In this document: positions 3,903 through 60,899 of the stretch, in pieces
How positions within the stretch are numbered: position 1 is the first letter of the stretch
Layout of the letters: every line of letters begins with the position of its first letter
Virus record (IMG/VR): IMGVR_UViG_3300017963_000003
Span: 128,261-192,260 of that record
Length of the DNA: 64,000 bases
Strand: one strand, 5' to 3'
DNA from: a virus
The notes under the pieces: model-generated
The model's database searches: none
What the model was told of the DNA's origin: nothing
The model's input: the letters and a program-made list of their open reading frames with translations, nothing else
Program-made: the position numbers and the translations under genes

Positions 3903-4430
3903 ATGACGACTGTAAGCGAAAAGATCAAAGCGCTGACGGACAAGATCAAGGACGCACTCGGACCCTACCCCCGGGCTACGACGGTCGTAGCTCGTGCGGC
4001 GGACCCACGGACACCCAACGTCGCACCCGTCGTCCCGGCGATGATGATCGCGGTCACGTACCACCAGACCGAGGTAGTTCGGATCTCCCTCGACGACGAA
4101 GGCAACCCCATCGACGTACAGCTCGATTCGGGCGGGTGGGAATCCAACACGACGAAGAAACGGATCAACGATACCCTCGCGGCGTTGTCGATCCCCTTCC
4201 GCGTCTGCCACGACAAGAAGACGATGATCTTCTGCGGGTTCTGGGAGAAAGACGCCAACGGGAAGTATCACAATCAGTCGATCCCGTTCGTCGAGCTGAT
4301 GCGAATCCGATTGTTCAAGAACGGCGCGATCCGTTCCGTCGTCAACGTCTTCGGGATGCCCATCGGGATCGTTCGCCCGAAGACCTTCCGTCGCGCCGTC
4401 GACCGCATGACCATCAAGGAGGCCAGCTGA
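3903..4430 (+). CDS. Conserved phage hypothetical protein (SGGWESNTTKKRIN motif)
   Basis: ORF track; motif type recurrent in phage early proteins. Confidence 0.75.
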   Translation: MTTVSEKIKALTDKIKDALGPYPRATTVVARAADPRTPNVAPVVPAMMIAVTYHQTEVVRISLDDEGNPIDVQLDSGGWESNTTKKRINDTLAALSIPFRVCHDKKTMIFCGFWEKDANGKYHNQSIPFVELMRIRLFKNGAIRSVVNVFGMPIGIVRPKTFRRAVDRMTIKEAS

Positions 4431-4876
4431 TGTCTACCCCCGTTTTCAAACTCGTCGTTCTCGATGTCAACGATACGTGGATTCGCCTCGTTGACGAGTA
4501 CAGCAGCCGCGAACTCGCACTGAGGGGCGCTCGCGCACACGTCAAGCTCGACCTTCTCCGTGAGGGATTCCGCTTCGGGTTGTTCGAGATGACGGCCGCC
4601 CTGGAGTACACCGAGATCCCCATCGACGCCGACCCCGATCCGACCCCCGCGCCCGAACCGGCTGACGACGTTTTCGGTGACAACCTGGATCGCTGGATAT
4701 ACCTCCACGTCGACCGCCACAAGCCCGATCCCGCGCCCGCCTCGGCGGAAATGTCCCTCGCGTCGGCCCGCGCAATCGTCGACAGCTTCGAACGCTCGGA
4801 TCGCCCCTTCGCGACCTTCGACGAGCGCAAGGCTGTCAAGATCGTCAATGACGCCATCGCGAGAGGGGAGATTTAG
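4430..4876 (+). CDS. Hypothetical protein
   Basis: TGATG coupling with the upstream ORF; GGAGG RBS. Confidence 0.7.
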   Translation: MSTPVFKLVVLDVNDTWIRLVDEYSSRELALRGARAHVKLDLLREGFRFGLFEMTAALEYTEIPIDADPDPTPAPEPADDVFGDNLDRWIYLHVDRHKPDPAPASAEMSLASARAIVDSFERSDRPFATFDERKAVKIVNDAIARGEI

Positions 4877-21624: not shown

Positions 21625-22227
21625 CTAGACGGGGCAGTCCTGAACAACGTCCTCGGCCTGCTCACGACGGTCTTCGATCCACTGGTCTACCCCCTCGGAG
21701 CGGGCCTCTTCGATCTGGTCTTCCTCACTCATCCCGGCATCGCGCTCTCGGGGATCGATCTCCACGTCGCTCTCGTCGAAATCATCCGCAAACGATCCCG
21801 CCAACTCAGACGCCGCGCTCTCGATCTCCGAGGCCCAGCTGTCCAGCTCGTTTGCCTTCTCCTCGCACTCATCGGCAGTAGGGGAGTCGGAGAAGGTGTC
21901 CCGAATGTTGTCGCATGACTCCTGGTACTCCTCGGAGACCTCGCGAACAGTCTCCGCGAACCGGTTGAGTATCTCCTGGAGGTCCGCCGCGTCCTCGTCG
22001 CACCACTTGCCGATCTCTTCGAGCGCGTCTTCCTGGGCGTCGTAGACGATCCCCATCTTCGACGACGTCATCTCGCTCGGACGGAACTGACAGAACTCGC
22101 AGCGAACCTTCTTGCCTCCGTACCGGGGCTTGATCCACTTGTAGGGATCACCGACCTTGATCTCCTTGTCGCAGCGACCACACCGTCCCTGATCCTTGCG
22201 TGCCTTCTGGACGTGGTTGATCCTCAT
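21625..22227 (-). CDS. Acidic hypothetical protein with N-terminal Zn finger
   Basis: ORF track; GGAGGAG RBS. Confidence 0.75.
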   Translation of the reverse strand: MRINHVQKARKDQGRCGRCDKEIKVGDPYKWIKPRYGGKKVRCEFCQFRPSEMTSSKMGIVYDAQEDALEEIGKWCDEDAADLQEILNRFAETVREVSEEYQESCDNIRDTFSDSPTADECEEKANELDSWASEIESAASELAGSFADDFDESDVEIDPRERDAGMSEEDQIEEARSEGVDQWIEDRREQAEDVVQDCPV

Positions 22228-23898: not shown

Positions 23899-24840
23899 CT
23901 ACTCATCGTCATCCTCCTCGCTCTCGACCATACCCTGGCGGTCCATGTACTCTGCCAGCTCAACATAGTTCTCCGCGAAAGCGCGCATCTCGGCCCGCAT
24001 GCGCGCCTCTTCCTCCACCAACTCTGCCCACTTGCCCAGATCGAGGAAGGACTCTACCGTGGTCGTGACCATCCGGTCCAGTTCCTTCGGTTCGACCGCG
24101 TCCAGCTCCCAGGACGAGTAGCCGTGCTGGGCAATGTAGTCCTTGGCCCGGGAGTCGGTGAGCTTCGCCGGATTCTCCGGAGGCTGAAGCTCCTCGATCT
24201 GCTCCCAGAGAAGAGCAAGACGTTGGAACTCCACGGGGCCACCTGAGAACAGGCTCAGCCGCTCCTCGACGTCCCTGTCCATGTCCAAGCCCGAGGGGTC
24301 GTGGTCCCCCAGATAGAGCACCACAATGCGCTTCCTACGAAACCTGCGAAGCTTCTTCAGATCCTCACCGATGCGCCACATCGTCGACTGAGAGGAGTAG
24401 CCTTTGTTGGCGATGAAGTTGACGTCCAGGCGCTTACAGACCGGCTCCAGCACACCCTCCAAGGCCTGCTTCTCCACTGCCACCATGACGTGGCACGGCT
24501 GCGTCTCCCACTTGTCGATACGGAACGAATTCGAAGCCGCCTGGATAATGTCGGCCGGGTCGCTCCAGTGGGGAGGCTCGACGAGCTTACGACCTCGGTC
24601 GACGATCTGCCCCCAATCCAGCAGACCCGCCATGCGACCGTCGTTGACGAGCGTACCGAGGTTCTTGTACTCACGCTGGTTGTTGGGAATAATGTCCCGG
24701 CTGACGAGCTGGTAGTAGAGCTGTCTCAGTGACAGATCGTATCCTTGCTCGGCGTAGCTGTTCATGATGCTGTTGATCATGCCGAGCAGCTCCAGCTTAT
24801 CGTCGCGGAAGTTCTTCTCGATGTATGCGATCTTCGGCAC
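23899..24840 (-). CDS. Stand-alone TOPRIM protein, topoisomerase VI subunit A/Spo11-like
   Basis: LSLRQLYYQL (WH), VEKQAL, NKGYSS, YLGDHDPSG, WELDA; GTG start after the repeat. Confidence 0.8.
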   Translation of the reverse strand: MPKIAYIEKNFRDDKLELLGMINSIMNSYAEQGYDLSLRQLYYQLVSRDIIPNNQREYKNLGTLVNDGRMAGLLDWGQIVDRGRKLVEPPHWSDPADIIQAASNSFRIDKWETQPCHVMVAVEKQALEGVLEPVCKRLDVNFIANKGYSSQSTMWRIGEDLKKLRRFRRKRIVVLYLGDHDPSGLDMDRDVEERLSLFSGGPVEFQRLALLWEQIEELQPPENPAKLTDSRAKDYIAQHGYSSWELDAVEPKELDRMVTTTVESFLDLGKWAELVEEEARMRAEMRAFAENYVELAEYMDRQGMVESEEDDDE

Positions 24841-24957
24841 GTTGCCCTCCGTATGGGTGCTGGTGTCATCCAGCTTACAGACCCACCTTACCATATCAGC
24901 AGGTGGCTGTCAATATACCGGAGGTTCTTTTTTCGCGGAAAGTTTGTTCAGGTGGGA

Positions 24958-26625
24958 TTACTGCTGCGGACGCTGCGACCGGGGGACCGATCCGCTCATC
25001 TCCCCAGCGAACCGGAGGATGGCATCCGACCACCCGCCGAGGATGAACGTGCGGTCGTAGAACTCGGGCACGATGGTGTCCTGGTAACCAGCAATCTGCA
25101 CCAGGTAGACCATGACGTTCGGGTTCACCTTGTTCCGGTACTCGATGATGAGCTTCGGAACATCGATGTGATTCCCGCTGCCCGGCCACACGTACCGCAT
25201 GTAGTCGGCCGAGTTGACCCCGTACAGACCACCGTGACCGGCCTGCATGTCCGAGTACACGAACACGTGGTCCCAATGCTCGCCGTTCTTGATCGCCTGG
25301 TCCCAGAACAACCAGATACCGTTCTCGGTGCCAGCGCCGATACGCTGACCCTTCCGGTTGAGTTGCTCAGTCTGCTCGAACACCGAGGCCTTCTTACGAA
25401 TCGGCATCGTCACCAGACGGTCACCGAACACTCCGGCATACCCTTCCTCGGAAGCCATCCCAGTGATGACACCGGTCAGGTTACCGATCTCGGCCACGTG
25501 CATCGTCCCCGACGAGGAGGTCATCGAACCCCAGGCAGAGCCGCTGTTGTCGCACAGAGACATGCACCGACCCTTGAAGACCGGAACGTTCTCCAAGATC
25601 GCCACCTCCAGACACTCCTCGACGGCGTCCAGGAGCAACGGAGACGGGTTCTCCGCCTTCAGGGCATTGTAGGCCGCGAAGTACCGGAACGGCAGCTGAC
25701 GTCCCTCAGGGGCACCGTCGACGAGCTTGCCCACGAACTCCTTGGGGTCCACGCCGGCCTGAGTCAGGTTCCGCAGGTTCCGCAACAGCGCCATGTGGCC
25801 CATCTTCTCGATGGACTCACGCCACGCAGCCTTGGTCGACCCCTTCTCCGAGATCAACGCCTCCCAGGTATCACCGGTCACCTTCAGCTCACCCTTGGAG
25901 AGCTTCGACACCGCATCCGACGCCGGATGGCAGATGTTGACGACGTCCACGAGCTTCACCTCGCGAGACTCCATCCGGTACTTGGCCAGCTGGTACTCGC
26001 TGAACCCTTCCAGGACGAGCTTCCACGCCTTCTTGAGCGCGTTCGGAATCCGCTGTCGTCCGTACTTCTGGATCTGGTAGGCCAGTTGCACAGCCGGTTC
26101 ATCCGCTCGCACCATGACCTGCTGGGCGTACTTGCGCACCAATCCCGTACCCTTGACCGACGGGTGATGGGCCGCGCGGACCATGATCACCTGCGGGGTC
26201 GTACGGATGTTGTACGTGCGCCCCCGCAGCTCAACCGCCAGCTGGAGAGTCCCCTCGGGGTCGTGCCCCAGGGCCGCGTCGATGGCGGACTCCATCAGCT
26301 CGGCCGGCTCCATGCCCCTCCACTCCCGAGGGTCTTTGGCGTCCAAGGTCTCCCGGAGATGCTGCAACTGGCGGTTGTCGAGGCGGCACCACCTGTCCAT
26401 CGTCATCACGTTCTTGCGCCGCCTCGTCTGATCCCCGTGGTAGTACATCGGCTCACCGAAGAAGCACGAGGCCGCAGCCATCCGCAGCTGGTCGAGGGGG
26501 TTGTCCACGGAGTAGGAGCGCCCGCCCATCCAGTTCAGATGCGCGTTCTCCGCTGCGTACTCTTCGTGTTCTCGTCGTTGCCGTCGATGCTTGACCGACG
26601 CCGTCGCAGTTCGATTGATGCCCAT
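24958..26625 (-). CDS. rsr: Ro60/Rsr RNA-binding protein (TROVE + vWA)
   Basis: NWMGGRSY...FFGEPMYY, MGHMALLRNLRNL, QLPFRYFAAY, MIDAS motif DNSGS, VYSDMQ. Confidence 0.93.
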   Translation of the reverse strand: MGINRTATASVKHRRQRREHEEYAAENAHLNWMGGRSYSVDNPLDQLRMAAASCFFGEPMYYHGDQTRRRKNVMTMDRWCRLDNRQLQHLRETLDAKDPREWRGMEPAELMESAIDAALGHDPEGTLQLAVELRGRTYNIRTTPQVIMVRAAHHPSVKGTGLVRKYAQQVMVRADEPAVQLAYQIQKYGRQRIPNALKKAWKLVLEGFSEYQLAKYRMESREVKLVDVVNICHPASDAVSKLSKGELKVTGDTWEALISEKGSTKAAWRESIEKMGHMALLRNLRNLTQAGVDPKEFVGKLVDGAPEGRQLPFRYFAAYNALKAENPSPLLLDAVEECLEVAILENVPVFKGRCMSLCDNSGSAWGSMTSSSGTMHVAEIGNLTGVITGMASEEGYAGVFGDRLVTMPIRKKASVFEQTEQLNRKGQRIGAGTENGIWLFWDQAIKNGEHWDHVFVYSDMQAGHGGLYGVNSADYMRYVWPGSGNHIDVPKLIIEYRNKVNPNVMVYLVQIAGYQDTIVPEFYDRTFILGGWSDAILRFAGEMSGSVPRSQRPQQ

Positions 26626-26679
26626 TAGGATACCTCACCTCGAACGGCAGAGCGTTCACTGCTGCCGTGATAACAAAAA

Positions 26680-26748
26680 GCAGGGAGAATAACGGGACGG
26701 TGTTGGCCAGAGTGATAGTCTGAAGGAACCGTCCGATCACTACCCTGC
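26680..26748 (-). ncRNA. Y-like RNA unit 4 (no tRNA module)
   Basis: GCAGGG/CCCUGC closing stem, AGUGAUC internal loop, GGACGGU/ACCGUCC inner stem, then UUUUU. Confidence 0.6.
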
Positions 26749-26762
26749 GCTACTCGTAAAAA

Positions 26763-26904
26763 ACGCGAAGAGAATTAGCGGAAGGGTGTCTTTACCACCG
26801 ATGCTCTGTCCGCTGAGCTACTTCCCTCCAGCTAGGGAAGGCGGGATTTGAACCCACGACCCTCGGTCCCTTGAGAAGTATCCCTACCTGTCACTGCTTC
26901 GCGT
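26763..26904 (-). ncRNA. YrlA-like Y RNA unit 3 with a circularly permuted tRNA module
   Basis: ACGCGAAG/CUUCGCGU closing stem plus U-tract; order ACCGA, GGGUC, T arm (GUGGG-UUCAAAU-CCCGC), 7-bp acceptor stem closed by a loop (CUUCCCU/AGGGAAG), D arm (UAGCUCAGCGGACAGAGC), UCGGU. Confidence 0.85.
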
Positions 26905-26992
26905 ACAGTCTCATACCAGTTTGCCCTCCGTAAAAGATGCCCGGCGGGGCGTCACCCTATCGAGCTGTCAAGCAGCACCGGGCAAAAAAAAA

Positions 26993-27063
26993 TTGGGGAG
27001 CAAAAAACGCGACGGGGGTCTTTCGTCCATTGAATGAAGTACCCGCCACTGTCACTTCCCCAA
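26993..27063 (-). ncRNA. Y-like RNA unit 2 (no tRNA module)
   Basis: UUGGGGA/UCCCCAA stem, AGUGACAG motif, GGGUACU as in units 1 and 3, long U-tract. Confidence 0.6.
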
Positions 27064-27078
27064 ACTCACAAACCACCC

Positions 27079-27261
27079 GCTTGGTTCCTTGAAAAGTGCC
27101 TCACCGGAGAAAAGTCGACAGGGAAACGTTAGCGCTCTTTCCAACTGAGCTACACCCCGACTGACGTCGGGGTGACAGGACTCGAACCTGCGACCTCTCA
27201 CTTAGCAAGTGGAGTAGCCCTACCTGTCACTACCCGTGAGCCACTTTTCAAAGAACCAAGC
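27079..27261 (-). ncRNA. YrlA-like Y RNA unit 1 with a permuted tRNA module and a 29-bp closing stalk
   Basis: AGUGACAGGUAGGG; T arm GCAGG-UUCGAGU-CCUGU; acceptor CACCCCGAC/GUCGGGGUG closed by GUCA; D arm UAGCUCAGUUGGAAAGAGC. Confidence 0.85.
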
Positions 27262-27273
27262 TTCGAGGTTCCC

Positions 27274-27302
27274 ACCTTAGCAGAGGAGAATGAGGCTGTC
27301 AA
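27274..27302 (-). promoter_or_regulatory. sigma70-type promoter driving the Y-RNA/rsr operon
   Basis: TTGACA (27297-27302), 17 bp spacer, TGC-TAAGGT (27274-27279). Confidence 0.7.
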
Positions 27303-36575: not shown

Positions 36576-37393
36576 CAAGGGGTACTCCAGCGCTCCACTA
36601 CATCAATGAAGTTGTCGTGAGCGTCTTCCTCGGTGTGTGCGTGCCACGTCTCCGTCTTGCCATCAGCCCACACCACCTGGACCGTCTTTCCGAAGCGGTA
36701 CACTGTGCACGACTGGGTCTCGGGGTAAGGAGAATCCATCCAAGGGATGTGCTCCTCCTCGTCGGGCTCCTGCGTATCCACCAGAGCCTGCGCAGACTTC
36801 TTGTCCAGCCACACCGAGTCGATCAGGGCATAGATCAAGTCCTCCTGCTCCGGGGTGAATACCCACCGGACACCCATGTTCTCTTCGGCCCACCCACGAG
36901 GAGTATTCCCGCGTTCCTCGGACGTCGCCATCCAGTCAGCAACCATCTCAGCAATGTCGAGAACTCCCATCCCGCTACCATCGATAGGTCGCTCCGCAGG
37001 GCCGTCCCGATCCTCTTCGTTGAGGACGTCCAGCGTTTCGAGCTGATGGTACTCCGGATGGTGGGGGTTGTTCAGAATGTGATGCTGAGTGGCCGCCTTG
37101 ATCGCGTCGTCCATCCCCTCTGGGAGCTGGCACTCAACGCCGTCGTCCTGGCACTTGTAGCGCCACGTCAACCAGACGTACGGGTCCAGCTCGGGTTCGT
37201 CAAACTTCCCCGCATCGTGCTCTTCTCCGCGCTCGATCAACCCATCCAACCCATCCCACGCGTCCTCCAGGAGGCGACAGTACTTCTGAACCAGGGCTAT
37301 GTGCCGTTCAGTGCGCTCGACGAAGTGACGCTTCATCTCGTCGTCGAGCATCTCCGCAATACGCCTCAGCGCCGCCCCTGTGATGCCTCTCAT
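36575..37393 (-). CDS. Leader-tagged HD-domain protein (DUF5662-like)
   Basis: Leader MRGITGAALRRIAE; RHI..V, HDAGKF, HHILNNPHHPEY, EMVADW. Confidence 0.7.
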   Translation of the reverse strand: MRGITGAALRRIAEMLDDEMKRHFVERTERHIALVQKYCRLLEDAWDGLDGLIERGEEHDAGKFDEPELDPYVWLTWRYKCQDDGVECQLPEGMDDAIKAATQHHILNNPHHPEYHQLETLDVLNEEDRDGPAERPIDGSGMGVLDIAEMVADWMATSEERGNTPRGWAEENMGVRWVFTPEQEDLIYALIDSVWLDKKSAQALVDTQEPDEEEHIPWMDSPYPETQSCTVYRFGKTVQVVWADGKTETWHAHTEEDAHDNFIDVVERWSTP

Positions 37394-37395
37394 CC

Positions 37396-37926
37396 TCACC
37401 TCTGGGACTCTTGCTTCCCGGCCCACTCGCCGGTCACAGCGTACGCGGCCTCTTCGAGGTGGTTCCCATGGTAGGCCTCCTCCCCGCGCATCCACGCCTG
37501 GAAGGAAGCGCTGGCATAGGAGAGCGCACCCGCCGCCACCCACGAGATGCCCCCACAAAGGGCTCCCGGTACCGGAGAGCCTGCGCTCCACGAGAGCAAG
37601 AACATCGTCAATCCGTACAGGAACCCAAGCAGCATCGCGGCCTCGTACTGCTCACTGTGGAAGTGCTCGTGGAACTCCACTGGAGTGTCGATGCCCTCGC
37701 CACCGGCTGCCGTGGGGAAGAACATGCCACCATGACCGAGACAGTTGCCGCCCATCTTGAACTTCCGGTCAGGCCACGAGCCTTCCTTGAACTCGAACCA
37801 AAGACCTTCCAGCCAGTGAAGCTTGTGACCCCAGAGCGCCCATGCGGTCAGGATGACGACCCACGAGATGATGTCCCACGGCCACGTCCACAGGTAGGTC
37901 AGGTAGTAGCGTGCTGGACGTTTCAT
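37396..37926 (-). CDS. Membrane protein (no leader)
   Basis: Three hydrophobic helices; HEHFHSEQ motif. Confidence 0.7.
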   Translation of the reverse strand: MKRPARYYLTYLWTWPWDIISWVVILTAWALWGHKLHWLEGLWFEFKEGSWPDRKFKMGGNCLGHGGMFFPTAAGGEGIDTPVEFHEHFHSEQYEAAMLLGFLYGLTMFLLSWSAGSPVPGALCGGISWVAAGALSYASASFQAWMRGEEAYHGNHLEEAAYAVTGEWAGKQESQR

Positions 37927-39209
37927 AGCGCCTCCTCGTACTCGCGCATCAACTGGTACGCTTCTTCAAAGCGCCCAACCCAAGGATTGCGTTCAATCAC
38001 CACAGGTACCTCACCAAGTCCGGCACGCTGAGCAGCGAACCAGCGGTGGTGCCCATCCTCGATGAGGTAGAGACCGTCCCCGACAGGAGTTACCGTCAAC
38101 GGCCCCATGTACCGGGGCCAACCCTCGGCCTTGTAGAACTGGTCTTCGATGTCATTTATCGAGGAGGGGTCTTTCTCTTCTAGAGGTTCCGTAGGGTACA
38201 ACGAGTCCACCGGAACCCACGTTGCCGATGACAGGTCTTCAGGTAGCGCCTCGGCAATGCGACGAACTCCGTTGCCCAGCTGAAGCTCAGGCTCCTCTTT
38301 CTCCTCCAGAGGCACGTAGTAAATGTCTTTATAGTCCTCCGGATTAGGCCATGTAGGCTCCACTACTCCTTGCTCCGCGACTCCCCGAGGAAGTTCTATT
38401 TCGAGAATCACAGGGTCTTCCAAAGATCCGTCCCAGCCCCCTTTGCGGGCGTACTCACGCGCAGACACCAGCGTACCAAACAGGTACACCCCGTACCCCC
38501 AATCCCCCCACCCACCCCAAAACCCTTCACGCTCGATACTGTCAGCAGACTCCCTATCGGTGACGTGGTAATAGGTCTCCGTACGCTGAGCCTCAGCAAC
38601 ACGACGCTCCTCCAAAGGATGGTCGGGCATCAGGTAGTCGTTCTGCCAATACAACACCTCCGGCTCGCCGTAGTGCTCTGAGAACTCGTTCTCAATTATC
38701 TCGCCGGTCTCTTCTCGGTCGAACGCCTTCTCCGGATCAATGGTATCCCAGTCTTCGAGAGGAACCCACCTCTCGCCGTTCCAGACGAACACTTCCTCGG
38801 GGTCGACATCATCGACGATCCAGGCATCCGCGAAAGCGTCTCGTGTACCGATCTCGTCGCGCTTCAAACCCTCGAAGACGTTGGTACGCACCGCGAGCAC
38901 CACAGGGAAGGTGCCGGTGAAGAACTCCTGCTCGTCACCGACCAACTCATTCTGCCCCCAGTCCTCCGACCGGCTGTACCAGAATAGAAGACCGTCCCAA
39001 GTCGTTGTAAAGACGCCCTGCTTGCTGTGCTCCGAGTAACCAGCGCCCTGCCCTACCCCACCTCCCACGTCTCCGAGAAGACCCTCTTCAGAGATACCAT
39101 CGAGATTCCGATAGTAGGTCACGTGGTACACAACATCCGGAACGTCCCCAAAGAACCCCTCCTGCGCGATCCTCCTCAATCCGGAATCTGGGATACCTCT
39201 CAACCTCAT
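37923..39209 (-). CDS. Leader-tagged three-domain protein: ART-like, ART-like, ParB/sulfiredoxin-like
   Basis: Leader MRLRGIPDSGLRRIAQ; YHVTYYRNLDGISEEGL; RRVAE linker; YHVTDRESADSIEREGF; RRIAE linker; LIEDGHHRWFAA. Confidence 0.7.
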   Translation of the reverse strand: MRLRGIPDSGLRRIAQEGFFGDVPDVVYHVTYYRNLDGISEEGLLGDVGGGVGQGAGYSEHSKQGVFTTTWDGLLFWYSRSEDWGQNELVGDEQEFFTGTFPVVLAVRTNVFEGLKRDEIGTRDAFADAWIVDDVDPEEVFVWNGERWVPLEDWDTIDPEKAFDREETGEIIENEFSEHYGEPEVLYWQNDYLMPDHPLEERRVAEAQRTETYYHVTDRESADSIEREGFWGGWGDWGYGVYLFGTLVSAREYARKGGWDGSLEDPVILEIELPRGVAEQGVVEPTWPNPEDYKDIYYVPLEEKEEPELQLGNGVRRIAEALPEDLSSATWVPVDSLYPTEPLEEKDPSSINDIEDQFYKAEGWPRYMGPLTVTPVGDGLYLIEDGHHRWFAAQRAGLGEVPVVIERNPWVGRFEEAYQLMREYEEAL

Positions 39210-39889
39210 CTCGGCCCCTCGTAAGGTCCCCATCTGGAGAGGGCCGCCTCAAACATCTCAGGCGTGACGCCGTTGACCCCGACGATATACTCAGGGGGAA
39301 CGAAGCCCGTGAACACGACACCTCCTGGATGGAGGTCCCCTCCAAGAGGGACGCTCCCGTCCAGAGGAACATCAACAGTCACCCAAGGGAAATGCTTGTT
39401 ATGCCGCTCAGATTCACTCGAAGGGTGGTTGACGCCTACTCCGAAAACAGACGTCGGTGACTCACTGCTTCTCCCAGCGCCCTCTGGTTGCGACACGAGG
39501 CCTTGAGAAAGGATAGACTGCATGAGGACCAGGCCTATACCGCCTTGCATGCCCGCAGAGTGAGAGAAACGGAAAGTCCCTTCTAGGGGTGAAGGAAGGT
39601 ACCGTTCGTCCTGCACAGCACTCCAGGCCTCCATTGCAATAGGTCTGATGAGGTCCCACTCATCCGTGTATTGTAGCTCTCTGAACTCCTCGGCAGACAT
39701 CCCCAGAAGATCGCCCATGATCGACGCAAACGCGTCCGCGTCGTACATGAGGTTGCCCACATCGGACCAACGCAACGCGAAATAGGCCGCCATCTCCTCC
39801 ACATCAGGGAGTGCGATGTCGCGCCCATCCCCTTCTGCGGACTGTGCGATCCTTCTCAATCCGGAATCTGGGATGCCTTGGAGTTTCAT
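39206..39889 (-). CDS. Leader-tagged protein with a possibly degenerate ART-like C-domain
   Basis: Leader MKLQGIPDSGLRRIAQ; FSHS...SILSQGL...GFVPPEYI. Confidence 0.65.
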   Translation of the reverse strand: MKLQGIPDSGLRRIAQSAEGDGRDIALPDVEEMAAYFALRWSDVGNLMYDADAFASIMGDLLGMSAEEFRELQYTDEWDLIRPIAMEAWSAVQDERYLPSPLEGTFRFSHSAGMQGGIGLVLMQSILSQGLVSQPEGAGRSSESPTSVFGVGVNHPSSESERHNKHFPWVTVDVPLDGSVPLGGDLHPGGVVFTGFVPPEYIVGVNGVTPEMFEAALSRWGPYEGPR

Positions 39890-40278: not shown

Positions 40279-41633
40279 TACAGATCACGCCCCCAGTCGC
40301 CGCCCCCGAAACTGCTCAAGTACCCCATGACCTCCCGGTACGAGGGGTCGTCGTGAGCCTCTCCCCACGTACGGTCCGCGAAGTCCTGGCCAAGCTCACG
40401 AGTCAGATCGTACAGTTCGCTGGAGGCTGCGAACTCCACCTCGTTCCACGAGGAGCCGAACTCGTAGTGTCCAGATGCACCAGCATCCTCCTCGAACGTT
40501 AGCTCCCGGTCCCATTCTGTGAGCAACGCCTCGGCAGCGGCACGATGCTCCTCGAAGGAACTTACGGAGCGAACCTGGTCCCGGAGACGAAGAAGGTTCC
40601 GAGAGGTCTGCCGCTGGAACTCATGGACTTCGTCCATCGTGTACGTGCGCTGGGCGATGCGCCGCATCATCGCGACCACCCTGCCCCCACTATCACCAGA
40701 CTCTCGATACGGAGGGCTCGGAGGCTCGGGAAGTTCACCCTGGAGATGCGGAGCGGCTTCAAGCAGACGCTTCAGGGTAGTGCCGTGGTACTCGATGCTG
40801 CGTGGTTGGTACTGGGTCTCCGAGAACAAGGAGGTCTGATCGCTCTCAGGCTCTCCCCAAACGAGCTGCTCCTCGAAATCAAAGTAGCCCCCGTAGACGT
40901 CATCGATCCAGGGGATGTTGAACCCCGGCCAGCGAGATTCCAACTCGCCCTCCGCGTTATCGTAGTCCTCCATCTCGGTAGCAACCGGAGTGATGAACCA
41001 GACCGCGCGAACACGGTCAGCCCCTACGTCTTCGGTGTACCGGTACTGGTCCGTAGCCAACATCAACAGCTCAGAGGAGAAGTCACCTGTCTGCATGTAC
41101 TTCCGGAACGCATCCGGGAACCCCGACTCCTCTACAAGACCAGACAGCGGGTTACCGAAGTGGTAGAACGTCCCCTCCGCGATCATACTCAAAGGATCGG
41201 TCGAAGAGGCATCAGGCTCTGTATCCGACTCCAAGATGTCGAACGCGGCATCGCGAATCTCCTCGTCAGAGGAGTCGACTGTCAAGTCGTGCCACCCTGC
41301 CATCTCCTGGAGATGAAGCTCCAAGACTTCCCAAACCATCTCCTCGGCGTCGTAATCCGTCTGCGGCTCGTGACCGCTCATGTCCAGGGCGACCACCACG
41401 GGATAGTCGGTTACGTAGTGAACATCGTTCTCGTCCGAATCAGTGTAGGACTGCGCGACACGACCCACCGCGTACTGAGCAGCGATCTTGAGATCACCCG
41501 TAGTGTGGAAACCCGGATGCGTGGTTACCCCTTTATACTTCTCTCCCACTGAGTAAGGCGGTTCGGCCAGGAAGTCGCCTACCTTGCGAGAGATCCTGTG
41601 AAGGGCCTGATCTGTGATGCCAGGAAGCCGCAT
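40278..41633 (-). CDS. Leader-tagged multidomain protein, ART-like N-domain
   Basis: Leader MRLPGITDQALHRISR; GFHTTGDLKIAAQYA...YPVVVALD; internal MMRRIAQ before the last domain. Confidence 0.7.
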   Translation of the reverse strand: MRLPGITDQALHRISRKVGDFLAEPPYSVGEKYKGVTTHPGFHTTGDLKIAAQYAVGRVAQSYTDSDENDVHYVTDYPVVVALDMSGHEPQTDYDAEEMVWEVLELHLQEMAGWHDLTVDSSDEEIRDAAFDILESDTEPDASSTDPLSMIAEGTFYHFGNPLSGLVEESGFPDAFRKYMQTGDFSSELLMLATDQYRYTEDVGADRVRAVWFITPVATEMEDYDNAEGELESRWPGFNIPWIDDVYGGYFDFEEQLVWGEPESDQTSLFSETQYQPRSIEYHGTTLKRLLEAAPHLQGELPEPPSPPYRESGDSGGRVVAMMRRIAQRTYTMDEVHEFQRQTSRNLLRLRDQVRSVSSFEEHRAAAEALLTEWDRELTFEEDAGASGHYEFGSSWNEVEFAASSELYDLTRELGQDFADRTWGEAHDDPSYREVMGYLSSFGGGDWGRDL

Positions 41634-58841: not shown

Positions 58842-60899
58842 TCACACCTCCAGTACGGTCATGCCATTCGTTTTGCGGGCCGTCCACACCTCGTTGAACT
58901 CCATCAGGTTGCTCACGTGACCCGAGTTATCCGTAACCAGTGTCGTGCCCGCCACGACGTCCTTGAAGCTCTCTGCGAGCCGCTGAGAGTTGCTCGCGTC
59001 CACGAAGGAGAAGATCTCGTCCAGCAGTACAAGGTTGCACCCATGTCCCGCACTGGTAGCCAAATCGTGCAGGGCACGAATCAAGGCATTCGAGATCTTC
59101 GAAGTCTCCCCATCCGAGTACAAGCGGGGATCGATGTTCTTTCCCCCGTCGACGACCTCTACCTTGATCTCCGACTTGAGCAGGTCTTTGACGTCCCCTG
59201 CCCCCTTGCCAGACTTCTTCTCTCGGAAACTGCTCAGGTTGACACGTACGGTATCCCCCATCTCCGAAAGGTACCGATTCACGAGTTCCGACAAATGGGA
59301 CATCGCCACCGACATCCGGTGCAGCTTCACGAACGGTATGTTGGAGATCAACCACTCCATGACGGATAGGTCGGCAAGGTCCCCCTCGATGGCCTGCTTC
59401 AGCTCGCTCACTGATTTCTTCCGATCTTCGATCTTCTGCGCCACCGACTGAACCTCTTCCTCCTTCGCCTTCGCCTCCCGCAGATAACCCTCCGTCTGGA
59501 GGATCTTATGAGATAGCGCAGAGGCTTCCGACTGGAGAACGCGAATAGCGGCGTTAGCCTCCTGAACACGACCAGAGAGCCTCTCGTACTCCAAACTGCT
59601 CTCCTGCAACTTGGTGTTCAGCGCATCCAGTTGGGAACGAAGACGGTCGGCCTCCGCAAGACGCTCACGGTACTTCTGATCTCGGGCTTTGCTGACTTGG
59701 TCCTGGGCCTGCTGCTGAGCGTACACGGCCTTCTCGTGTGCCTGACGGGACTCCTCTACCCGCTTCTCCAGGTCAGCAACCTTCTGGAGATGCGCGGTCT
59801 TCTTCTCCTCGCTCAGGAGAGCCCCGCATGTCGGACACTCGTCCTGGGACCAAAAACGGTCTTGGCCAGAATGTACACGCAGCTCAGCAAGAAGAGTATC
59901 CATGGCGGACCGGGTGTCCTGGACAGCCTGAGCATACGACTGGTCTACCTGGGGCAGACTGCTGTCGATGAACGCAGGGTTGCGTAGCGCCCCCTCCCTG
60001 ACCGAGAGGTCCGAGATCTCCTGAGAGATGGTACCGGAGCCGGTCTGCTCGTACGCAACGTGCTGCTCCTCAACAAGAGCTTGAAGCTCCTCGCTCTTCT
60101 GCTGCACCTCTGCGTTCTTGGCCTTGACTTCCGTGTCGAGCTGTACCAGAGCACCCGTGTACTGCGCCACCAAGTCGGGCCAGTTAGCCTCAACGAGCTG
60201 CGCGTGCTGAGCCTCCATCGACGACAGCGCACCCTCGTCGTAAGAGATGCGCTGCTGGGTCTCGCTGATCTCCCTCTGCCGAGTATTTTTCTCATTGCGA
60301 CAGTTGATCAGAATCCGGTCCCACTCCTCAACCCCAGTAACCCCGGCCAAGATGTCAACGCGCTCTTTGTTCGAACCCCGGAGGAAGCGCGAGCCTGTTC
60401 TGTGGCTGAGGTAGGCGATGGAGAGAAACCGACTGTAAGTGATCCCCAGTGCGGCCAACACGGTTTTCCTCGTCGCGACCATCGAGTCCGCGCGAGCGTC
60501 CTTCCAGCCCTCGCCGTCGAAACGATCCAGAAACAGCGCGGTGCCTTTATAAGCGGCCTTGGTGTCGTTATCGACAGGGTAGTAGTCTTCCTTCCACCCT
60601 CGACAATAGGTGACCCTGTAGTAGACGCCCTCCCAAGAGACGAACTCAACCCGTCCAGCGAACCCGAAGTCCATCACCTGATTGACGACTTCGTTACCAG
60701 AAACGCCTGTAGGGTTTTCCCCGAACAGGATCTCGCACAGCGCGTTGAAGAGCGACGACTTGCCGGCACCGTTAGAGTCACCTCCAGTATCGTCGTTGAC
60801 ACCCACCAGGTTCACCAAGCCTCGACGCTCAACGTCGATGTTCGAACATCGACCGTAGGAGAACATCCCCGTGGGATTGATGTAGCGAATCTTCAGCAA
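58842..60899 (-). CDS. sbcC: SbcC/Rad50/gp46-like ATPase
   Basis: Walker A NGAGKSS, coiled coil, Zn hook CPTCG, variant signature YSDGE, Walker B LLDEIF. Confidence 0.9.
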   Translation of the reverse strand: MLKIRYINPTGMFSYGRCSNIDVERRGLVNLVGVNDDTGGDSNGAGKSSLFNALCEILFGENPTGVSGNEVVNQVMDFGFAGRVEFVSWEGVYYRVTYCRGWKEDYYPVDNDTKAAYKGTALFLDRFDGEGWKDARADSMVATRKTVLAALGITYSRFLSIAYLSHRTGSRFLRGSNKERVDILAGVTGVEEWDRILINCRNEKNTRQREISETQQRISYDEGALSSMEAQHAQLVEANWPDLVAQYTGALVQLDTEVKAKNAEVQQKSEELQALVEEQHVAYEQTGSGTISQEISDLSVREGALRNPAFIDSSLPQVDQSYAQAVQDTRSAMDTLLAELRVHSGQDRFWSQDECPTCGALLSEEKKTAHLQKVADLEKRVEESRQAHEKAVYAQQQAQDQVSKARDQKYRERLAEADRLRSQLDALNTKLQESSLEYERLSGRVQEANAAIRVLQSEASALSHKILQTEGYLREAKAKEEEVQSVAQKIEDRKKSVSELKQAIEGDLADLSVMEWLISNIPFVKLHRMSVAMSHLSELVNRYLSEMGDTVRVNLSSFREKKSGKGAGDVKDLLKSEIKVEVVDGGKNIDPRLYSDGETSKISNALIRALHDLATSAGHGCNLVLLDEIFSFVDASNSQRLAESFKDVVAGTTLVTDNSGHVSNLMEFNEVWTARKTNGMTVLEV

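Follow-up and report, generated by a model that had tools for sequence, protein, structure and literature searches.

A divergent Ro60 gene in a phage genome is preceded by an array of Y-RNA-like units that share an AGUGA handle

Ro60/Y RNA particles have been studied mainly through a few animal and bacterial examples. Proteins of the Ro60/Rsr type form a ring of HEAT repeats with a vWA domain behind it, and carry Y RNA on the outside of the ring and misfolded RNA in its central hole. Here we characterise a locus of the IMG/VR virus record IMGVR_UViG_3300017963_000003 (192,260 bp, direct terminal repeats, approximately 60% G+C), found in a stretch of 64,000 nucleotides that covers bases 128261–192260 of the record and is referred to below as the window. 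On the minus strand of the window, a promoter-like site is followed by four structured units (U1–U4) and one mini-hairpin (U5), and then by the gene for a 555-amino-acid protein with a Ro60 fold. The 745 bases upstream of the Ro60 open reading frame (ORF) hold no credible coding sequence and carry TTGACA-N17-TAAGGT at their start. We consider it probable that this locus is a self-contained phage Ro60 ribonucleoprotein cassette, made of a promoter, four Y-RNA-like small RNAs and the Ro60 gene.

Among the described systems, the YrlA RNAs of bacteria are tRNA mimics composed of a T arm, an acceptor-like stem and a D arm, with the motif GNCGAAN0-1G on their 5′ strand (Chen et al. 2014, PMC4201824). 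The same study reported at least two Y RNAs per species, and putative YrlAs near Ro60 in 254 bacteria and 22 phages. In Mycobacterium smegmatis both Y RNAs are processed from one precursor upstream of rsr, and YrlA, which has a 7-bp acceptor there, is cleaved by RNase P; RNase P, the CCA-adding enzyme, TruB and DusA were all found to act on YrlA, and tandem tRNAs are known false positives of the YrlA models (PMC4201824). Ro60 of Thermus phage phiLo has been shown to bind two upstream Y-like RNAs as well as host PNPase in vitro (NAR 2025, PMC12135203).

The window resembles the YrlA/YrlB loci with Rsr (Salmonella Typhimurium, M. smegmatis, mycobacteriophages) in that several small RNAs lie directly upstream of the Ro60 gene, one type being tRNA-like on a long stem and the other a plain hairpin. 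All five units are found no more than 640 bases upstream of the Ro60 start codon at 26625, inside the 4 kb from a Ro60 ortholog used for YrlA, and U1 and U3 have the order of YrlA (RF02553), namely a T arm, a capped acceptor-like hairpin and a D arm within a long stem. Unlike YrlA, the window units carry G-(bulge)-AG-UGA with GUUCUC opposite instead of GNCGAAN0-1G, only their tRNA-like core aligns to RF02553, and the locus has four units plus a mini-hairpin rather than two RNAs, with no RtcB/RtcR. The phiLo locus (Yrl1/Yrl2; PDB 9KOP, 9L5Y) shares with the window a phage-encoded Ro60 and upstream Y-like RNAs, but these RNAs are two, were found via a CGAA motif and have no described tRNA-like module. 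The Yrn1/Yrn2-Rsr-PNPase particle of Deinococcus radiodurans (RYPER), in which a Y RNA bridges the Ro60 ring and its effector, served as the model for the mechanism proposed below; D. radiodurans likewise has one tRNA-like RNA and several small RNAs upstream of rsr, and its Yrn2 fails to accumulate in a TROVE knock-out. The D and T arms come in a different order there, the handle sits elsewhere, and a link to PNPase like that of RYPER is a presumption for the clade of the window protein.

The element common to U1–U4, which we call the handle, consists of a variable closing helix, a bulged base, invariant A-U and G-C pairs and then UGA. Its internal loop is asymmetric, with UGA facing NNNGUU on the other strand and GUUCUC opposite, and its distal part comprises a second covarying helix followed by a (G)UUACUUC / AACAC element. 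The units of the window read G(U/A/C)AGUGA(C/U/A), and the consensus of the TROVE clade to which the protein belongs is GCAGUGAG. A first-pass annotation of the DNA had placed five related units on the minus strand, and all five intervals indeed fold with a closing stem followed by N-AGUGA-N; its reading of AGUGA as a departure from the published Y RNA motif also held when compared with Chen et al. (2014). The count of five has to be qualified, as four of the units are full ones and the fifth is a core-only mini-hairpin in the Ro60 leader.

Along the array, units with a handle and a permuted tRNA-like module (U1, U3) alternate with units in which the handle carries a short hairpin (U2, U4). 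U1 has a core at 27100–27240, aligned to R2 model positions 1–142, and its base is lengthened by a 20-bp perfect duplex of 27241–27261 with 27079–27099; its minimum free energy fold is at −95.3 kcal/mol. The module of U3 includes one extra small hairpin. The U-tracts described for units 2–4 can be read directly as nine U after U2 (26992–26984), six at and past the end of U3 (26763–26758) and five after U4 (26679–26675), while U1 and U5 have none. U5 retains a 7-bp stem, the bulged C, the A-U and G-C pairs and a UGAACG loop, and ends about 6 nt ahead of the Ro60 Shine-Dalgarno sequence. No unit qualifies as a tRNA, since the anticodon arm is missing and the acceptor is closed by a loop; ARAGORN found no tRNA in the window, and the Rfam tRNA model reached 21.6 bits, under its 29-bit threshold.

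Two covariance models were built from which the window was excluded: R1 from 39 bacterial short units only, and R2 from nine handle-plus-permuted-tRNA units of bacteria and other phages. Stem 2 of R1 was supplied by hand; RNAalifold on a MAFFT alignment of the short units returned the closing helix only, because indels broke stem 2. The window was searched with R1 on both strands with filters off. Between them, the two models recovered all four full units and nothing else in the 192-kb genome, in which U2 and U4 alone passed with R1. U5 was the third-best R1 match in the window, matching the handle core only, and the next match had an E-value of 0.78. This next match, at 41408–41437(+) (12.9 bits), and a further one at 37315–37349(+) (9.3 bits, E 5.9) resemble mini-hairpins with AGUGA and (GUU)CUC; they lie antisense to minus-strand ORFs, and are probably due to chance.

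A lack of covariation among homologs would have counted against the first-pass annotation, but every helix showed covariation. In the alignment of 70 R1 matches (A3), 88.1% of cells were paired against 41–56% in slid controls, and in that of 23 full-length R2 matches (A5) 92.5% against 44–51%, figures that are somewhat inflated as both alignments were fitted to the structures of the models. The covariation scores were 0.584 against about 0.10 (A3) and 0.775 against 0.10–0.18 (A5), with compensatory changes in 14 of the 18 pairs and in 26 of the 32 pairs, the latter spread over all five helices. The margin over the slid controls is thus large despite the fitting. The coordinates of all features are collected in Table 1.

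Table 1 Features of the Ro60 locus (window coordinates; R1 and R2 are the covariance models described in the text)
Feature	Coordinates	Strand	Evidence or remark
Promoter-like site TTGACA-N17-TAAGGT(GGG)	27274..27302	−	About 12 nt upstream of U1
U1: permuted tRNA-like module on a handle (T arm, capped acceptor hairpin of 9 bp, D arm)	27079..27261	−	R2 88.6 bits, E 3e-20
U2: short Y-like hairpin, handle only	26991..27065	−	R1 39.7 bits, E 2e-7, full length
GC-rich hairpin then UCUUUU, between U2 and U3, terminator-like, without handle	26932..26983	−	Fold of 26905–26992
U3: permuted tRNA-like module on a handle (T arm, capped acceptor hairpin of 7 bp, D arm), ends in U-tract	26763..26904	−	R2 88.3 bits, E 4e-20, full length
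U4: short Y-like hairpin, handle only	26678..26750	−	R1 35.5 bits, E 2e-6, full length; fold −29.7 kcal/mol
U5: 25-nt mini-hairpin, invariant core of the handle only	26643..26669	−	R1 16.1 bits, E 0.13
Ro60-type protein (TROVE plus vWA), 555 aa, divergent clade	24958..26625	−	Pfam, profile, fold
Second TTGACA-N17-TAAGGT(GGG) copy	24885..24913	−	Directly past the Ro60 stop codon, ahead of the next gene

The assignment of the downstream gene to Ro60 was borne out by three lines of evidence. Pfam TROVE (PF05731) matched with 43.3 bits (E 3.7e-11), a partial hit restricted to residues 252–321. A profile of the clade identified phiLo Ro60 in the PDB at E 7.7e-29 and matched human Ro60, D. radiodurans Rsr and Xenopus laevis Ro weakly (6.8e-4 to 0.07; 6.8e-4 for human Ro60), the clade being so divergent that Rsr is barely detected (E 0.059). 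An AlphaFold2 model (predicted local distance difference test score 77.9, predicted template modelling score 0.78) was compared by Foldseek with the PDB, and the 12 best matches were all Ro60/Rsr structures (9kop, 9l5y, 1yvp, 2nvo, 9nep and others) at probability 1.00, with 470–540 aligned columns, i.e. nearly full length, and template modelling (TM) scores of 0.54–0.71. The protein therefore has a Ro60 fold, although its place in the family is a distant one. The closest solved structure was that of phiLo Ro60 (TM 0.60–0.71), at about 21–22% identity in the structural alignment. NCBIfam contains no model for the 555-amino-acid TROVE protein. Its relatives at 55–65% identity number in the thousands, the closest metagenomic ones being 64–65% identical (P0002–P0005); relatives on viral contigs were not returned by a query with the single protein and were found only with the clade alignment as query.

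The locus was compared with 79 bacterial loci (mainly from Polyangia including Sorangium, with others from Chloroflexota, Nitrospiraceae, Deinococcus xinjiangensis and further groups) and with 33 viral loci, taken from IMG/VR contigs that measure up to 395 kb. The handle lies next to TROVE genes of this divergent clade on at least 25 IMG/VR phage contigs and, among bacteria, in Polyangia, Chloroflexota and a Deinococcus. Upstream of 70 bacterial TROVE genes, AGTGA is enriched about 20-fold at −300 to −100, with 88 occurrences in two 100-base bins against approximately 2–3 per bin elsewhere. When 150 first-look candidates from the bacterial genomes were scored, R1 had one match in the 13-Mb genome of Sorangium cellulosum So ce56 and one in the 4.4-Mb genome of D. 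xinjiangensis, each beside the TROVE gene, and in three other phage records every R1 match fell within the TROVE locus. The 33 viral loci contain 47 R1 matches, almost all on the same strand as the TROVE gene and upstream of it. A conserved RNA family of defined structure is thus linked exclusively to this TROVE clade.

Two conserved RNAs are present in the bacterial loci, a short hairpin and a tRNA-like RNA of about 130 nt. The short hairpin has the same design as U2 and U4 and reads, from its 5′ end, closing helix, C, AGUGA, a second helix ending in GG, UUACUUC, a loop, AACAC, the second helix, NNNGUUCUC and the closing helix. The tRNA-like RNA has the native order of a tRNA, with a 7-bp acceptor stem (often followed by ACCA) and D and T arms, the loop-capped handle occupying the position of the anticodon arm with the T arm next to it. 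It was found in Sorangium cellulosum So ce56 (L042:2185–2322), at L030:2129–2264 and in about 50 other bacterial loci. Since these RNAs score 44–48 bits with the Rfam tRNA model, above its threshold, annotation pipelines may call them tRNA or pseudo-tRNA.

U1 and U3 are an exact circular permutation of this native-order RNA, with their ends at the handle and the acceptor capped. The native-order RNAs of Polyangia, Chloroflexota and other groups are their closest natural relatives: handle, T arm, D arm and a 7-bp acceptor are the same parts as in U1 and U3, whereas their termini are those of the acceptor stem, where ACCA is often encoded, and it is the handle that is capped. Permuted forms also exist outside the window (L010:2076–2210, L059:2203–2336, L106:2179–2315), and both topologies therefore coexist in the TROVE clade. 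In the open literature that was searched, including papers that mention YrlA, neither the AGUGA handle nor the native-order tRNA-like form was found to be described; subscription journals and the supplement of Chen et al. (2014) lie outside this scope and may hold an earlier listing. The AGUGA-handle variant is apparently undescribed so far.

Arrays of handle units are common in the related loci, often with 2–5 units and varied payloads. In L122 a short, a tRNA-like, a short, a tRNA-like and a fifth handle unit precede the TROVE gene; L106 has four units and L090 at least four tRNA-like ones. L015, from a metagenome-assembled genome of Nitrospiraceae, has at least seven: at least five short units upstream of TROVE (1760–2438) and two longer ones downstream (4294–4549), followed by six ordinary tRNA genes, so that a bacterial array reaches the same size as those of phages. 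Some payloads on the common handle are full permuted tRNA modules, others combine a T arm with a further hairpin, and still others are unrelated hairpins. One scaffold with interchangeable payloads, as claimed in the first-pass annotation, is therefore seen, but it is not new to this phage, as the large TROVE clade shows it both in bacteria and in many phages. Overall, it is well supported that the locus represents a real, widespread variant form of the Ro60/Y RNA system that is not unique to this phage.

The handle also varies together with the protein. TROVE proteins that are 47–65% identical to that of the window are paired with the AGUGA handle, whereas in a clade at 41% identity (Bacillus phage G gp540, L115, L117) AGUGA is replaced by (A/U)GCGG while UUACUUC and UUCUC are kept. 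L120 is in between, with a TROVE protein 53% identical to that of the window and yet an AGCGG handle. In Bacillus phage G, five variant-handle units of the form GA(A/U)GCGG...ACAGUUACUUC lie in an unannotated 1-kb gap before the TROVE gene gp540 (L007:1690–2400, NC_023719.1 approximately 406.6–407.4 kb), and a permuted tRNA-like unit precedes gp539 (L007:215–374, approximately 405.2–405.35 kb, R2 74.7 bits). No conserved partner protein gene was found in the 2.5-kb flanks of about 100 loci. One large cluster of flanking proteins was rejected as a partner, as it consisted of heterogeneous low-complexity ORFs of Polyangia (alpha-2-macroglobulin, vWA/YfbK, no family). That the handle variant tracks the protein clade, and that no other neighbouring gene is conserved, are the best arguments for the handle as the Ro60 docking site.

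The promoter noted in the first-pass annotation stood up to counting. The exact TTGACA-N17-TAAGGT pattern occurs twice in the window against zero expected, and the wider pattern TTGACA-N16-18-TANGGT has four sites in the whole genome, all on the minus (coding) strand, with none in the reversed control. The remaining two TTGACA-N17-TA(A/C)GGT sites are at 21759–21787(−) and 148533–148561(−) of the whole genome (G000), and TAAGGTGGG is common to two of the four copies. The phage probably uses this element as its host-type promoter, the −10 element being TANNNT-like. A simple promoter and terminator scan made no calls in the array region, because the −10 element is TAAGGT and the loops are larger than the scan allows; it was also silent on the GC-rich hairpin between U2 and U3, which had no R1 or R2 match.

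Based on these results, we propose that a sigma-70/sigma-A-type promoter would drive transcription of the four Y-RNA-like RNAs and then of the Ro60 gene. The closing stems and U-tracts, together with the 20-bp basal duplex of U1, probably define discrete RNA ends via termination or RNase III-type processing. By analogy with the conserved bulged helix of other Y RNAs, the handle may dock each RNA onto the ring of the phage Ro60, and host factors would then meet a tRNA-shaped or hairpin surface on the distal modules. PNPase is a documented partner of Ro60/Y RNA particles in Deinococcus and Salmonella, and would be one candidate; tRNA enzymes would be others, and different units may tether different host enzymes, as the first-pass annotation suggested. 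The acceptor hairpins of U1 (9 bp) and U3 (7 bp) can be compared with the length that allows cleavage of YrlA by RNase P in M. smegmatis, and the capped acceptors would expose no free CCA unless RNase P and 3′ trimming opened them as in that species. In this way the phage would divert the RNA decay or quality control of its host during infection, and U5 in the leader may let Ro60 bind its own mRNA. Of this scheme, we infer every step beyond a conserved structured RNA linked to a TROVE protein, that is, binding, processing and host partners.

A wider form of this proposal is a modular adaptor system, in which one ring protein is served by interchangeable RNAs (the tRNA module in either permutation, a T arm alone or plain hairpins), phage arrays of up to five or more units aim one Ro60 at several host RNA-processing or defence factors, and U5 gives feedback control. 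We offer it tentatively, as a possibility that is rather doubtful in its entirety.

Several points weigh against the cassette reading, in addition to the inflated pairing mentioned above. The published GNCGAAN0-1G motif on the 5′ strand of the Ro-binding stem is absent from the window units, and docking of the handle is for this reason argued from linkage rather than from a known contact. The Rfam YrlA model aligned the tRNA-like core of U1 (35.9 bits, E 6.5e-6, on 27131–27198) and of U3 (33.4 bits, E 3.3e-5, model positions 1–114, with the handle helix mismatched), scores that are about half of its 69-bit gathering threshold; the Infernal search with this model thus agrees with R2 on the permuted topology that the first-pass annotation had assigned to U1 and U3, and falls short of a YrlA call. 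Stem 2 is weak in both of these units (4–5 pairs with an internal loop). U5 is by itself statistically marginal, and no U5-like mini-handle before a start codon was seen in 674 kb of related loci. Termination at the U-tracts that follow U2, U3 and U4 would also stop transcription ahead of Ro60, and no clear promoter lies between U2 and U3, where a TTGACA was rejected for having no −10 element at the correct spacing; transcription may reach Ro60 via read-through, processing of a long precursor or an unrecognised promoter. For this phage and for the clade, release of the RNAs and their binding by Ro60 are predictions. The window locus would work like the YrlA and phiLo systems, but fails two of the tests that define YrlA, and its protein belongs to a separate clade.

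These same features could also be explained if the array were a structured cis-acting leader of the Ro60 mRNA, with attenuators or autoregulatory sites, in which Ro60 would bind the handles of its own 5′ untranslated region and control read-through or translation. All units lie on the same strand directly upstream of the gene behind one clear promoter, stems followed by U-tracts resemble conditional terminators, and U5 keeps the handle core alone and ends a few bases before the ribosome-binding site. However, some units are located downstream of the TROVE gene in L016, L093 and L015, and the tRNA-like RNA of Sorangium and others has its own 7-bp acceptor ends and encoded ACCA, both of which fit with free RNAs; known Y RNAs, moreover, are released from such precursors (PMC4201824). 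We regard a purely cis-acting leader as unlikely, while the cis-leader and free-RNA readings can both be partly true.

We consider it highly improbable that the handle RNAs work with some other partner than Ro60, for instance by serving host tRNA enzymes or defence nucleases as substrates or tRNA-like decoys, and that their adjacency to TROVE reflects co-regulation only. The missing canonical Ro motif and the so far putative binding of the handles by Ro60 would fit with such a role, as would the recognition of YrlA tRNA-like modules by RNase P, the CCA-adding enzyme, TruB and DusA. Against this, in all phyla and phages compared the handle RNAs are linked exclusively to TROVE, and each TROVE clade has its own variant of the handle. 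No other neighbouring protein gene was found to be conserved, and the short units carry the handle alone. The specific suggestion of the first-pass annotation that the units act as decoys for anticodon nucleases was poorly founded, and is rejected as a main function because no unit has an anticodon arm.

That U1 and U3 are decayed tandem tRNA genes, with the T arm of one and the D arm of the next, and the remaining units chance hairpins, is already refuted: although tandem tRNAs are known to mislead YrlA models and the real tRNA array of this phage gives weak YrlA matches (G000 107304–107925), what separates the T arm from the D arm is a capped hairpin of self-complementary sequence, ARAGORN detects no tRNA, and R2 matches all 141 nt of the unit, handle included, at E ~1e-20, with covariation in all five helices.

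With regard to the surroundings of the cassette, the phage genome encodes at least 14 ordinary tRNA genes in an array outside the window (G000:C1 approximately 106.7–108.2 kb, loci L003–L006), which accounts for the other sub-threshold YrlA matches in the genome as tandem-tRNA false positives. The absence of an adjacent rtcB, also part of the first-pass annotation, extends further, as the complete phage genome was found to contain no RtcB gene. Immediately downstream of Ro60, the gene at 23899–24894(−) matches the ‘DNA topoisomerase’ family phrog_6247 (E 3e-104), and PHROG matches further identified a ParB-like domain protein at 37923–39233(−) and an SbcC-like nuclease subunit at 58842–60899(−), while the majority of large ORFs of the window had no PHROG match. 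A megablast comparison of the locus with 50,697 phage records gave no match.

The TROVE clade of this locus is very large, numbering thousands of proteins from bacteria and large phages; its partner RNAs escape the Rfam YrlA model, and their presumed docking motif differs from the published one. Models R1 and R2 allow these handle RNAs to be annotated. Cultured carriers are available for both forms: Bacillus phage G, with its five variant units and gp540, and, for the bacterial form, Sorangium cellulosum So ce56 and Deinococcus xinjiangensis. In this clade, the handle RNAs occur as natural circular permutations of one tRNA-like design.

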